From positions 40,005-104,004 of the forward strand of contig NW_021832714.1 in NCBI RefSeq assembly GCF_006345805.1: a DNA stretch of 64,000 nt, in the 5' to 3' direction. The translations under genes and the position numbers were made by a program. The DNA is from Octopus sinensis. Taxonomy: Eukaryota. A model generated the notes under the pieces. That model did no database searches. It worked only from the letters and a program-made list of their open reading frames with translations, and was not told the origin of the DNA. Positions 2,320 through 58,293 of this stretch are shown here, piece by piece; the first letter of the stretch is position 1; each line of letters begins with the position of its first letter.

Positions 2320-2497
2320 TTCCCCTCTGTCTTCCATTTCTGTTGGACTTTCCTCTGTCTCCTGTGTCTGAAGAAGAGCTTTGCTCGAAACCTGAAACCA
2401 CCTTCCTTTCCTTCCTTGAGCGTCTGCTAACACTTTACATATATCACGTCCTCGGGTTGTTGTTTCTTTTGTGATTGTTCGGTCTTCGTTTTGGGAT
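2320..2497 (+). mobile_element. PLE pLTR-like module, family B, with degenerate hammerhead at 2364-2398
   Basis: GTGT-CTGAAGA-A-GAGC-TTT-GCTC-GAA-ACCT-G-AAAC; similar to 8908-9100 and 50200-50383; ends in (TA)n. Confidence 0.7.
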
Positions 2498-3447
2498 ATA
2501 TATATATACCCCAAATATATAAGTACTGGCCCCCATTGGCTCGACTAAACTTCTTGAAGGCGTTGCCCAGGATGACCACAGTCTAATGACTGAAACAAGA
2601 GGTAAAAGTAAATGGTAAAAGATATAAACTAGGGAGAGAGAGAGAGAGAGAGAGAGAGAGAGAGAGAGAGAGAGAGAGAGAAAAGGAGGAAATTATGTAA
2701 TAGATATATAGATAGAAAGGTAGGTAGATAGATAGATAGATAGATGGATGGATGGATAGAGAGACAAGTAAAAAGCAAATACAGAAGAAAAAGAAAGAAA
2801 TAAAGAATCGTAAGGAAAAGAGAGATAGAAAAATAAAGAGAGAGAGAGAGAGAGAGAGAGGAAAGTATGAATAAAGAGGAAGTGGTTGGGGTGGGAGAGC
2901 GAGAGAGAGAGTGAAAGGTAGTTTGCTGTGGTTATTACAGCTGTGTTTGAAATAATAGCTTGTTAAACAATTAGTGACACTAGTTGTAAGGTCACGGTGA
3001 TTACCATCTGGGTAAGCAGCAGCAGCAGCAGCAGCAGCAGTAGTGGTTATACTATCATCATCATCATCATCATCATCAGCAGCAGCAGCAGCAGCAGCAG
3101 CAGCAACAGCAGCAGCACTCCCTTTAACATTCAAGACTTCTTCCAATGTGAAAAATTACCATCACAAACATCACCACGACGACGACGACCACCACCACCA
3201 CCACCATCATCATCATCATCATCATCATCATCACCTCCACCAACACCACCAACACCATCATCATCATCATCATCATCATCACCACCACCACCACACACCA
3301 ACACCATCATCATCATCATCATCATCATCATCATCATCATCATCATCATCATCATCATCATCATCATCACTGCGTTTGTCCTCCTCTTCCCTACTAACAA
3401 TCCCCCACCTCATGCTATGCATCATCATCACTATAGAGCAGTGTTTC

Positions 3448-3677
3448 TGCGAGCTGGCAGAAACGTTAGCACGCCGGGCGAAATGCTTAGCGATATTTCG
3501 TCTGCCGATACGTTCTGAATTCAAATTCCGCCGAGGTCGACTTTGCCTTTCATCCGCTTTCGGGGTCGATAAATAAAGTACCAGTTTCGCACTGGGATCC
3601 ATGTAATCGACTTAATCCCTTTGTCTGTCCCTGTTTGTCCCCTCTATGTTTAGCTCCCTGTGGGCAATAAAGAAATA
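3448..3677 (+). mobile_element. tRNA-derived SINE family 1 (Nin/Deu-like core) with 16-bp TSD
   Basis: A/B-box-like head, core gccgaggtcgactttgcctttcatcc..gtcgataaa..gtaccag; TSD tatagagcagtgtttc at 3432-3447 and 3678-3693. Confidence 0.9.
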
Positions 3678-3684
3678 TATAGAG

Positions 3685-3911
3685 CAGTGTTTCCCGACCA
3701 TTTTTTAACCTATGGAGCCTTTGCATTCCTATTTTAGTCGGGTGGACCCCCATAAAAAATCCCATTGTATTTTTATAATTATATATTAGGAATTGCATAA
3801 AAAAGTTAAAATATTTTGTGTATTTTAGAAATATAACCAAATTTATTGCACATGGATGTTGACAACAATATATGATGTGAACCCCCAAGGGCCCCTTGTT
3901 GAGAACCACGA
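3685..3911. mobile_element. hAT (Charlie-like) MITE
   Basis: Ends cagtgtttccc...gagaaccacga; 8-bp flanks ctatagag/gtttagag; related to 33239-33540. Confidence 0.7.
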
Positions 3912-4182
3912 GTTTAGAGGGTTCGGAATAATTTTGGTTGTTGCGATATGTTGATCAGTTTGGACCACAACGATAGAGCAGACAAATCTAAAATGGCGAT
4001 TGTCCTCAGTCAAGAATAATCACTTCGTTCTCAATGTTGTGTTGGTTAAAGGGTCCGATAAGATACGGTCAGACACGGTCAGACTTGGACTGAACAGCAA
4101 CTCTGGTCATCGTTTGACATTCGTGAGGATATCGGACTATTGGGATTAGGGAACGGTACAGTAAGGAACGAAACGAGAAAAA

Positions 4183-4332
4183 CGCCGCGGTCAACTTTGC
4201 CCTTCATCCTTTCGGGGTCGATTAAATAAGTACCAGTTACGCACTGGGGGTCGATATTATCGACTTAATCCGTTTGTCTGTCTTTGTTTGTCCTCTCTGT
4301 GTTTAGCCCCTTGTGGGCAGTAAAGAAATAGG
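4183..4332 (+). mobile_element. SINE family 1, 5'-truncated
   Basis: Core plus tail gtgtttagccccttgtgggcagtaaagaaat. Confidence 0.85.
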
Positions 4333-4524
4333 TTCAGCTTTCATATACTTTTTTATTTCCCCATCCGGCACCTTTCAGTTTTTAAAAATGGATTCTTTAA
4401 ATAATATATTCCTCGATGTATTGCGACTAAATGATAGGCAGAGAGGTTATTATCGAAAAATATTTGGCTCTGGGTCTCTTGGATGATGATTGGTTAAACA
4501 ATAACGATAGCAGCAGCAGCTAGT

Positions 4525-4900
4525 GAAGGCGCAATGGCCCTGTTGTTAGGGCAGCGGACTCGCGGTCGGAGGATTGCGGTTTCGATTCCCAGACTGGGCG
4601 TTGTGTGTGTTTATTGAGTGAAAATACCTAAAGCTCCAAGAGGCTCCGGCAGGGGGTGGTGCCGACCCCTGTTGTACTCTTTCGCTCCAACTTTCTCTCA
4701 CTCTTTCTTCCTGTTTCTTGTCCCTGACTTCCTACGCAACGGCTGAGCCTGGATGCGCATTTATCCATCCGTCGATGCTCTCGGTGTCGGGGGTTGACCT
4801 GCTTTCTCTTCTGCGGGTCTTACGAATAGCAAAGGACCACGTTTCGGACTTCTCCCATCTTGCGAGCTCTGGGAACGAAGGCCGTTCGCTCAACAAACAA
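4525..4900 (+). mobile_element. tRNA-derived SINE family 3
   Basis: Head ggcgcaatggccc..ttagggcagcggact..ggtttcgattccc and an (AAC)n-like tail; closely similar copy at 31771-32115. Confidence 0.85.
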
Positions 4901-56105: not shown

Positions 56106-56315
56106 CACGACTAAATTAAGTATTGTAAGTATGGTTTTTAGTTAAATGTGTCGATAATGTCGATGGTGAGTTGTAACTTCGTTCATTCATTTCTCTCCAA
56201 TATATTTGTGTTCGATAATTTTGGGATCTGTATGAACAAAAGCCATCTTTCCTGCTTTCGCGACCTCCATATATTGTTTTCAAGGTTCAAAATTTTTTGG
56301 GGGAAGGAGGAGACC

Positions 56316-56830
56316 AGTCGGCTACATCGACTCCAGTACGCAACTGGTACTTAATTTATCGACCCCGAAAAGATGAAAGGCAAAGTCGACCTCGGCGGAA
56401 TTTGAACTCAGAACGTAAGACAGATGAAATACATATTTCTTTACTACCCACAAAGGGCTAAACACAGAGAGGACAAACAAGGACAGACAAACGGATTAAG
56501 TCGATTATATCGACCCCAGTGCGCAATTGGTACTTAATTTATCGACCCCGAAAGGATGAAAGGTAAAGTCGACCTCGGCGGAATTTGAACTCAGAACGTA
56601 AGACAGATGAAATACATATTCTTTACTACCCACAAGGGCTAAACACAAGAGGACAAACAAGGACAGACAAACGGATATAGTCGATTATATCGACCCCAGT
56701 GCGCAATTGGTACTTAATTTATCGACCCCGAAAGGATGAAAGGTAAAGTCGACCTCGGCGGAATTTGAACTCAGAACGTAACGGCAGACGAAATACGGCT
56801 AAGTATTTATTTCACTTGGCGTGCTAACCC
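56316..56830 (-). mobile_element. SINE family 1 multimer (about 3 tandem bodies)
   Basis: Core repeated at ~180-bp period. Confidence 0.88.
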
Positions 56831-56934
56831 GCTACCTTGCGATTTGCGACCTCCGTATATTAAAGGAAATACGCTCAAGTGTACACACGCACACACACAC
56901 ATATTACTGTAATGTGTTTTCTTTTTGCATGACA

Positions 56935-57227
56935 CTATTGCCCAAGGTTCCCGTGGTCTTTTCCGTAGGCTTTTCTATCCACGGACAAACCTAATATGTT
57001 TTCCCTTTTTACATTGACATTTCTGTGATACACGATCCCTATTGATCGGCCCCACTTTTCTTTTTTTTTTACGATCCCTTTTCATCGCAATTCCTCCCCT
57101 TTTTTCACGATTCCTTTTGATCGGTATTCGCTCCCCCTTTCCCCTCTTCTCTTCTTCCAAAAAAGAAAAGCTCTACTTTGTATTTTGTCCCTTCTGTGTT
57201 TAGCCCTGCGTGACCAATAAAGAAATC
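56935..57227 (+). mobile_element. Probable LINE 3' UTR sharing the SINE family 1 tail, next to (CTAT)n
   Basis: Pyrimidine-rich tract then gtcccttctgtgtttagccctgcgtgaccaataaagaaat, without the SINE core. Confidence 0.5.
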
Positions 57228-57606
57228 TATCTATCTATCTATCTATCTATCTATCTATCTATCTATCTATCATCTATCTATCTATCTATGTATCTATCTA
57301 CCTATCTATCTATCTATCTATCTATCTATCTCTATCTATCTATCTATCTATCTATCTATCTATCTATCTATCTATCTATCTATCTACTATCTATCTACCT
57401 ATATCTATCTATCTATCTATCTACCTATCTATCTATCTATCTATCTATCTATCTATCTATCTATCTATCTATCTATCTATCTATCTATCTAAGAGACTTG
57501 CCGGTATGGGCAACTGTTGGTCTTCTATAAAACATTCCCAGTCCTGGGCCTTGCGAGGTTTGCTTTTCAAGTGCAAATCTTGATGATACAAATGATGTGA
57601 TGGTGG

Positions 57607-57972
57607 CTTTTACTTGTTTCAGTCATTTCACTTCTGTTTTAGTCGAAGAAAATCGACACCAGGACTTACTTTTTAAACCCTAGTACTTATTATATCGGTG
57701 TTATTACCCAACCACTAAGTTACGAGGACGTAAACACACCAACAACTATTGCCAAGAGGTGGTGGTGGTAGTGGGGCAAACACGGACACAAAGACACACA
57801 CATACATAAGTGTGTGTGTGTGTGTGTGTGTCTACGATGGGCTTCTTTCAGTTTCCGCCTACCAAATCCATTCACAAGGCTTCGGTCGGCCTGAGGCTAT
57901 TGTAGAAGACACTTGCCCAAGTTTCCACGCTGTGGGACTGAACCAAGAACCATATGCATGGGATGCAAGCTT
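57607..57972 (-). mobile_element. SINE family 2
   Basis: Reverse complement of tail, core and head. Confidence 0.82.
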
Positions 57973-58248
57973 ATTGCGGTGTTAACGGTAATGATGTTGC
58001 TATGACGATAACGATCCTATGATGGACGTGCTTTTTGTGATGATGATGATGATGATGATGTGATGATGATGATGATGATGATGATGATGATGCTGGTGCA
58101 TATGGCGGTTTGTGTTGAACTCCTGGCTATTCTTATATTTAGGAATGGTTATTTTGCCAGTTTAGTCAATAAAAACACACGCACTATATATTTGGTGTTA
58201 CTTTGCTTCAGCGTTATTTACTTTTTACATTAATCTTAATCTTATTTC

Positions 58249-58293
58249 GGCCAGAGTTCTTTCGTCACACTTCTGTGACCTCATCAGTGGTCC
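58249..58293 (-). ncRNA. Compact type I hammerhead ribozyme
   Basis: GGACCA-CTGATGA-G-GTCACA-GAAG-TGTGAC-GAA-AG-AA-CT-C-TGGCC. Confidence 0.75.

Follow-up and report, generated by a model that had tools for sequence, protein, structure and literature searches.

Hammerhead motifs of Penelope-like elements in Octopus sinensis include three lineages with fixed noncanonical cores

INTRODUCTION

Hammerhead ribozymes at the ends of Penelope-like elements (PLEs) and the insertion of these elements at (TA)n tracts (PMC8557442) are both known; new is the fixation of changes in the hammerhead core in three PLE lineages, which we describe here from the genome of Octopus sinensis. Our starting point was a stretch of 64,000 nucleotides (nt) within the 2.72-Gb assembly (NW_021832714.1:40005-104004; hereafter "the window"), for which an original prediction, made from the sequence alone, had proposed a dense and diverse population of hammerheads.

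Why PLEs keep hammerheads is an open question: cleavage is weak in vitro and dispensable for insertion (PMC4209133, PMC11167929), and it has been asked whether the ribozymes merely parasitize the elements (PMC8557442). In the PLE of Anolis, AT-rich DNA is nicked, priming is internal, and uncleaved RNA serves as the main template; the hammerhead of this element cleaves only with protein, and mutants of the hammerhead ribozyme core have no effect on insertion in vitro (PMC11167929). Single mutants of the CUGA region have low activity (PMC9901934), as does a natural A6C variant, with a kobs of <0.1/min (PMC3088659). Retrozymes, which are short noncoding retroelements with hammerheads, have been traced to a PLE origin (PMC7229834; 10.64898/2026.07.22.740005). 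Active Penelope families are present in O. vulgaris (PMC13282606), in a report whose accessible portion mentions hammerheads 0 times, and Craig 2021 was alone in linking octopus and hammerhead among the literature matches listed.

RESULTS

Hammerhead anatomy in the window

The original prediction placed about 18 type I hammerheads, in about 10 families of flanking sequence, at 20 coordinates in the window. Site-by-site inspection, which admitted an extra nucleotide, first-pair mismatches, and long stems, recovered type I anatomy, with three helices around the core and the ends in stem I, at all 20, and the sites fall into 11 sequence families. The core CUGANGA/GAAA/UH is kept at 12 sites (16464, 20574, 25079, 27476, 28326, 29577, 35333, 48368, 50261, 50536, 50907, and 58249), among which stem II has decayed at 16464, stem I has 2 bp only at 50261, and stem II opens with U.U at 25079, 27476, and 35333 and with A.A at 50536/50907. 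Five sites have a core that is altered throughout their lineage, a feature that the prediction missed: CUG-U-NGA at 9197, 10546, 16055, and 17442 and CCGAUGA at 9009. The three remaining motifs are broken, by the loss of stem I and a G in place of the family's H17 (2364), by the combination of a U6 core with GAAG (35884), or by an additional A following GAAA (48452).

An Rfam scan of the window at the gathering threshold gave 0 matches, and no hammerhead model was present among the best 150 of 300 E-value rows; minimal PLE hammerheads would not be expected to score. Because Rfam gave no hammerhead match, we verified the motifs with a custom structural descriptor. A loose core pattern has 18 matches in the window against a shuffle mean of 3.5, and the full descriptor (stem I of at least 3 bp, stem II of at least 3 bp, stem III of at least 1 bp, and UH) has five canonical and four U6 matches, where 60 local dinucleotide shuffles give averages of 0.03 and 0.07, so the predicted excess of motifs over shuffled sequence is borne out. 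The full descriptor found 0 matches with C6 or G6 cores in the window.

Covariation of stems was evident, across families, in the ACGAUYGU group, from which 13 members picked by core pattern were aligned. Among these, 87% of the cells are paired and 8 of the 12 pairs change on both sides. The covariation score is 0.52, compared with 0.24 for shuffled and at most 0.19 for slid alignments, and was reached by 0 of 500 shuffles, of which 48 matched the count of eight two-sided pairs. These values provide support and not a probability, because the 13 rows are relatives picked out with a core pattern.

Half of the sites are truncated ends of autonomous PLEs

Ten of the 20 sites are 5'-truncated 3' ends of autonomous PLEs. 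They belong to family A (9197, 10546, 16055, 17442, and 35884), family B (2364, 9009, and 50261), family E (29577), and family I (58249), whose relatives elsewhere carry frames for a GIY-YIG endonuclease, or for a reverse transcriptase (RT) plus GIY-YIG, upstream of the hammerhead on the same strand. The order within the element is GIY-YIG frame, 3' untranslated region (UTR), hammerhead, about 100 nt, a fixed end, and (TA)n. None of the four families behaves as a short tandem unit lacking an open reading frame (ORF).

Family A provides the fullest record. Across 30 loci, its 3' end is fixed before (TA)n and its 5' ends are staggered, with the longest copies passing through a pyrimidine-rich UTR into the GIY-YIG frame. 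Conversely, a hammerhead lies downstream in 29 of 30 loci picked by the family A GIY-YIG protein, and all 34 motif copies have U6. Stop-free stretches of 623 to 829 codons with RT and GIY-YIG are present in 10 of 10 loci; the frame matches Pfam RVT_1 and has 750 homologues at E ≤ 1e-50 among 8,000 scored. Pairwise identity among ORF copies, from loci selected for long frames, has a median of 96% and reaches 99.4% (45 pairs), and the lineage is young, with unbroken frames. In the motifs read from L161 and L162, RT is followed by a C-terminal GIY-YIG that contains two cysteines, and DKG and a CX4CxxC linker are present as well. One locus (L169) has a tandem arrangement of family A, and 0 of 81 tail ends run on into their own upstream sequence.

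In family B, GIY-YIG lies upstream of a canonical hammerhead in L089 and a PLE protein lies upstream of a C4 hammerhead in L197; 28 of 30 C4 loci show the (TA)n target bias. Family E brackets an RT/GIY-YIG frame, which in L171 has the Hydra-clade CxCX5C linker, CxxC, and CxH. For family I, 4 of 20 loci have GIY-YIG alone upstream; a tail, of at least 50 nt, is optional. Inverted pairs with two 3' ends, which follow the "tail" pattern of PMC8557442 and PMC11167929, occur in families E (+37/+154), C (+16/+93), J (+39/+109), and F (+95/+175).

The sequence CCUGAGCG, which families A and B have in common 15 to 30 nt downstream of H17, is able to base pair with the 3' strand of stem II. An alternative fold in which the downstream UGAGCG pairs with stem II appears in some predictions only, and CCUGAGCG could possibly act as a switch or a protein-binding site.

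The original prediction held that non-autonomous, ribozyme-bearing elements were mobilized by PLE enzymes, represented by remnants at 17830 and 61461. Both remnants are genuine, with RT and GIY-YIG in the former and RT in the latter, and the involvement of PLE machinery stands, as does the non-autonomous status of families D and H (below); families A, B, E, and I are instead truncated autonomous elements. The remnant at 17830 was considered as the parent of the adjacent hammerhead and rejected, since the hammerhead's module lies in inverted orientation and belongs to a family whose ORF is a different one.

Three lineages have fixed noncanonical cores

Noncanonical cores are fixed in three lineages, as A6U (family A), U4C (family B), and A9C (family I). 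Exact matches to the scaffold GAG..CUC GAAA CG U, for which the backwards-pattern control gave 0 in each case, number 17,615 genome-wide with A6U and 8,116 with U4C, compared with 4,947 with the canonical core. A search demanding CUGANGA would miss 84% of these copies (25,731 of 30,678), and counts of ribozymes in animal genomes may therefore be low. Family I has 2,509 copies genome-wide (control, 0), the first 100 rows of which comprise 89 C9, 10 A9, and 1 U9. All hand counts of first 100 rows reported here (position 6 open, tail anchored, family B, and family I) come from contig C1. With position 6 left open, there were 99 U, 1 C, and 0 A; among tail-anchored rows, position 6 was U in 83 of the 83 in which it is visible; and family B rows had 55 C4, 39 U4, 1 A4, and 5 truncations. 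The cleavage site is spanned by 92 of 100 tail-anchored family A copies.

In a tree that excluded a three-member subfamily and unassigned rows, the U6 rows group as a single clade (100/100) within which subfamilies make up a ladder. Among six successive U6 subfamilies, the commonest letter differs at only 2 of 36 hammerhead columns (N7 and H17) versus 54 of 114 flank columns. Because the pattern used to collect the rows fixed sixteen columns, the comparison was also made on the 19 columns free of it (P = 0.002; P = 0.03 versus the downstream flank alone). The unpaired nucleotides G5, G8, A9, and G12-A15.1 are constant across U6 subfamilies. In contigs of four runs under three organism labels, collected at 80% likeness, position 6 has no other letter at 3%; N7 takes all four letters, H17 is A or U, and 15.2/16.2 show CpG-type changes. 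U6 always occurs with the loop GUAG and A6 with a 3-nt loop. Ten metagenome matches to the U6 pattern, none with family A flanks, were treated as chance.

A different hammerhead family, at L252:3205 (+) with an inverted partner, has the core CCGAAGA (C4) and a palindromic ACAGCUGU stem III and is possibly a second U4C lineage.

ORF-less units and families without an assigned parent

Only two families, D (28326) and H (20574), have the character of ORF-less, retrozyme-like units, of about 460 to 500 nt, in which the 3' end continues into the unit's own upstream sequence. In family D, such read-through without TA occurs in 5 of 32 tail-end matches, with a unit of 440 to 463 nt, and one of 19 non-self loci (L097) holds a dimer without TA, whose two cores are separated by 468 nt. 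The family H unit repeats at 500 nt in the window, where the upstream core is broken. For families C, F, J, K, and M, no PLE protein match was found upstream in the few relatives examined. Upstream of family F (L173 and L175) lie 1.3 to 1.8 kb of AC-rich noncoding DNA with an internal duplication, which may be a long UTR or a non-autonomous element.

Adjacency to (TA)n and density

That the modules end at (TA)n, as predicted, agrees with the presence of (TA)4 within 250 nt downstream of H17 at 17 of the 20 sites (background, 0.20; binomial P = 9e-10). Upstream, (TA)4 lies within 250 nt at 10 of 20 sites, and the site at 58249 has no (TA)n within 400 nt. Microsatellites are abundant in the window (182 tandem rows).

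The predicted frequency of one ribozyme per 3 to 4 kb is true of this window only, which has one site per ~3 kb. A single descriptor finds 10 matches in the window versus 7 in 360 kb (36 stretches of 30 large contigs) and 0 in the 40 kb that lie upstream of the window on its contig. Five exact patterns, which favor the window from which they were derived and leave decayed copies outside the count, total 43,931 matches genome-wide, or one per 62 kb, versus 10 in the window; the window has ~8 to 10 times the genome density. The dense cluster itself is ordinary PLE debris. The prediction's suggestion that this density could affect host intronic transcripts found no footing: the 55 of 119 open stretches scanned contain no host protein domain and yielded LINE-type (long interspersed nuclear element) RT and a repeat artifact only.

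Features of the window

Feature coordinates are given in Table 1. Beyond these, a TA-anchored repeat (family G) occurs at 24600-24940 (+), 28930-29162 (inverted pair), and 29855-29960 (-), with 10 distinct copies seen. It has a hammerhead-like CUGANGA...GAA(U/A)G(A/U)C, stem I is not evident, and the repeat could represent either another variant of the core or a hammerhead that has decayed. An exact 79-bp tandem duplication (24432-24591) lies upstream of a family G module. Near-perfect inverted repeats with (TA)n flanks at 16734-16848 and 17034-17329 are possibly the inverted ends of other PLE-like insertions. A 47-bp tandem array at 42657-43568 (19.5 copies; 96% match) lies within a long open frame; the Pfam PqqD score over it was rejected as a repeat artifact. 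Decayed LINE-type RT fragments were found at 1-800 (Pfam RVT_1 at 3-437) and, by eye, at 6100-7200 and 39860-40930.

TABLE 1 Hammerhead modules and PLE remnants in the window, with window coordinates and the positions of core nucleotides C3 and H17
Feature	Coordinates	Strand	Details
Family B 3' end, decayed minimal hammerhead	2316..2508	+	C3 2368; no stem I; G at H17 position
Family B 3' end, U4C core CCGAUGA	8908..9103	-	C3 9039, H17 9013; (TA)n 8863-8907
Family A 3' end, A6U core	9104..9302	-	C3 9228, H17 9201; 3' end adjoins family B module
Family A 3' end, N7=U subfamily, A6U core	10541..10681	+	C3 10551, H17 10578; (TA)n from 10682
Family A 3' end, N7=A subfamily, A6U core	15998..16180	+	C3 16059, H17 16086; (TA)n from 16181
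Family M module, canonical core, long decayed stem II, palindromic ACGAUCGU stem III	16385..16658	+	C3 16470, H17 16547
Family A 3' end, A6U core	17352..17560	-	C3 17473, H17 17446; (TA)n 17308-17351
Broken PLE frame, four open pieces (RT, CxxC linker, GIY-YIG)	17748..19664	+	Endonuclease 68% identical to that of L089
Family H, ORF-less ~500-nt unit, span of >1 unit	20482..21090	-	Canonical core; C3 20632, H17 20580
Family C copy, canonical core, U.U at 10.1/11.1, stem III 4 bp, stem I 6 bp	24993..25340	-	C3 25123, H17 25085; (TA)n +93
Family C inverted partner	27270..27536	+	C3 27482, H17 27520; (TA)n +16
Family D, ORF-less ~460- to 470-nt retrozyme-like unit, (TA)n on both sides	28161..28599	+	Canonical core; C3 28336, H17 28384
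Family E 3' end, Hydra-type PLE, start approximate	29400..29812	+	Canonical core, long stem II; C3 29583, H17 29661
Family K module, canonical core, palindromic ACAAUUGU stem III	35070..35520	-	C3 35400, H17 35336
Family A 3' end, U6 core further broken by GAAG	35779..35954	-	C3 35915, H17 35888
Decayed family A copy, additional to the 20 sites	47341..47490	+	C3 47368; CAAA for GAAA
Family F inverted pair	48277..48655	.	Minus copy intact, C3 48405, H17 48372; plus copy with extra A, C3 48456, H17 48491
Family B 3' end, canonical core, weak stem I	50229..50382	+	C3 50265, H17 50291; (TA)n from 50383
Family J inverted pair, long stem II, palindromic ACAUAUGU stem III	50431..51022	.	C3 50618 (-), 50911 (+); (TA)n +109 and +39
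Family I PLE 3' end, A9 copy (family mostly C9)	58127..58400	-	C3 58287, H17 58254; no (TA)n
PLE-type RT fragment	61441..61960	+	RT at 61441-61830

DISCUSSION

We consider it likely, judging from sequence comparisons, that the motifs are hammerheads of PLE 3' ends, mostly in 5'-truncated copies that end at (TA)n, and that in three lineages the core changes weaken self-cleavage and leave the fold under selection. By analogy with published PLE work, the element's endonuclease would nick AT-rich DNA and the RT, with uncleaved RNA as its template, would prime about 100 nt downstream of the hammerhead, which would explain why short copies keep the motif. Cleavage would separate the ORF from its priming site, and a ribozyme that is slow, or that depends on dimers or protein, might for this reason be tolerated or even favored. 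The weakened cleavage would probably be protein assisted, and the tertiary core could be retained to allow some residual cleavage or to give the element's protein a handle; the fixed unpaired core suggests that the tertiary fold is kept. The D and H units likely ride the same PLE enzymes. A bolder extension of this scheme, that PLEs were three times selected for crippled but folded hammerheads (A6U, U4C, and A9C), with slower cleavage keeping the ORF joined to its priming site and the variants out-amplifying their canonical relatives, is one that we regard as tentative.

Several observations weigh against weakened PLE hammerheads with a fold under selection. The tree leaves the C4 and U4 rows of family B unresolved, and in one C4 subfamily, characterized by H17=C, stem I pairing is lost through mismatch, which looks like decay. 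Blocks of 9 and 13 columns downstream of the hammerhead are likewise invariant, so constraint is not unique to the ribozyme. Families that keep the canonical core are also present in many copies (10,744 matches; control, 8), and since the U6 and canonical lineages differ at many sites beyond position 6 (tail distance, ~0.36), copy number is not assignable to the core change. Among 36 distinct TA-joined loci counted by hand in the first 100 of 620 rows, 5' ends fall at the cleavage site in 5 (6 with one rearranged copy), at +6 in 5, and at -10 in 4; cleavage-site junctions are thus among the commonest, and some cleavage could explain them, with TA microhomology as a confounder. Three variant lineages are few, and 8 of the 20 sites have no assigned parent.

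The same data bear on three other explanations. The view that the modules are mostly non-autonomous, retrozyme-like elements mobilized in trans is favored by the TA-free read-through and two-core dimer of family D, the 500-nt repeat of family H, and the absence of upstream PLE protein matches from the copies of C, F, J, K, and M examined, with the noncoding DNA upstream of F; half of the sites nevertheless lead upstream into GIY-YIG frames, and the lack of read-through among the family A tail ends also makes this account improbable. That dimerization, the 4-nt loop 2, or the element's protein restores the variant cores to full activity in their native context seems similarly unlikely, even though the coupling of U6 to GUAG and of A6 to a 3-nt loop hints at compensation, and the palindromic ACGU would permit a dimer. 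A viroid U4C variant is reportedly active. The protein dependence of the Anolis hammerhead (PMC11167929) would also fit full activity. Nonetheless, mutants in the CUGA region of a type III hammerhead were rescued by no second mutation (PMC9901934), nearly all tail-anchored copies span the cleavage site, and the lowest-energy predicted dimer folds lack an extended helix III.

It is harder to set aside the idea that, with cleavage dispensable, drift in master elements has fixed variant cores that are dead as ribozymes, and that the remaining core positions look conserved only owing to short divergence or an overlapping signal. Insertion in vitro is independent of cleavage (PMC11167929), Naiad PLEs amplify without canonical hammerheads (PMC8557442), three different core positions are affected, flank blocks are invariant as well, and the column test against the downstream flank alone is weak. 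However, drift does not readily account for a motif in which N7 varies freely and H17 is confined to A or U, yet the unpaired core nucleotides, and U6 itself, do not change. We view this account as possible but doubtful and favor weakened, still-folded PLE hammerheads.

Should the core changes indeed have been selected three times, they would make up the largest naturally occurring collection of hammerheads with core changes and offer a natural test of the purpose that hammerheads serve in PLEs. That question is testable with short synthetic RNAs because canonical and altered related lineages share one genome, and one of these is young, with unbroken frames. A literature search with the core heptamer strings returned nothing relevant among the matches listed, a search for A6U hammerhead cores yielded a single paper, on twister, and we found no report of lineage-wide A6U, U4C, or A9C cores; Lunse 2017 (PLE hammerhead variants), outside that literature, could hold one.

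The closest described relatives are the minimal PLE hammerheads of Cervera & de la Pena 2014 (PMC4209133), which share the type I fold, the extra nucleotide between 9 and 10.1, the palindromic 15.2-16.2/loop 3, multiple families in each genome, copies in the thousands that are mostly solo and stem from truncated PLEs, and opposite-strand pairs 100 to 700 bp apart. They differ in number (2,000 to 9,000 reported versus our 43,931 exact matches to five patterns) and in the core variant named, U3-A8, with A6U, U4C, and A9C lineages not named in the accessible portion. With the Neptune/Nematis-type endonuclease-bearing (EN+) PLEs (Craig 2021, PMC8557442), families A and B share RT with a C-terminal GIY-YIG, (TA)n targets, and tandem or inverted copies, and family A shares DKG, the CX4CxxC linker, and the two GIY-YIG cysteines, a likeness by motifs alone; family A differs in its A6U core. 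Family E resembles the Hydra clade (PMC8557442), again by motifs alone, in its CxCX5C linker, the CxxC and CxH near the C terminus, a canonical hammerhead, and (TA)n, and differs in its long stem II (~60 nt).

Families D and H share ORF-less units and a type I hammerhead with the retrozymes of the non-LTR (non-long terminal repeat) kind (Cervera 2020, PMC7229834; Li 2026, 10.64898/2026.07.22.740005), and the two-core dimer of family D is a further common feature. Those retrozymes are quoted at 150 to 450 bp, a range that the units of 460 to 500 nt here exceed only slightly, and the D and H units are dispersed, TA anchored, and mostly single or partial. Finally, the natural core variants of Perreault 2011 (PMC3088659), whose accessible portion does not name A6U, include the same kind of single-letter core changes, among them the low-activity A6C, but those are rare single cases, whereas in O. 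sinensis such changes are the majority state of amplifying lineages.

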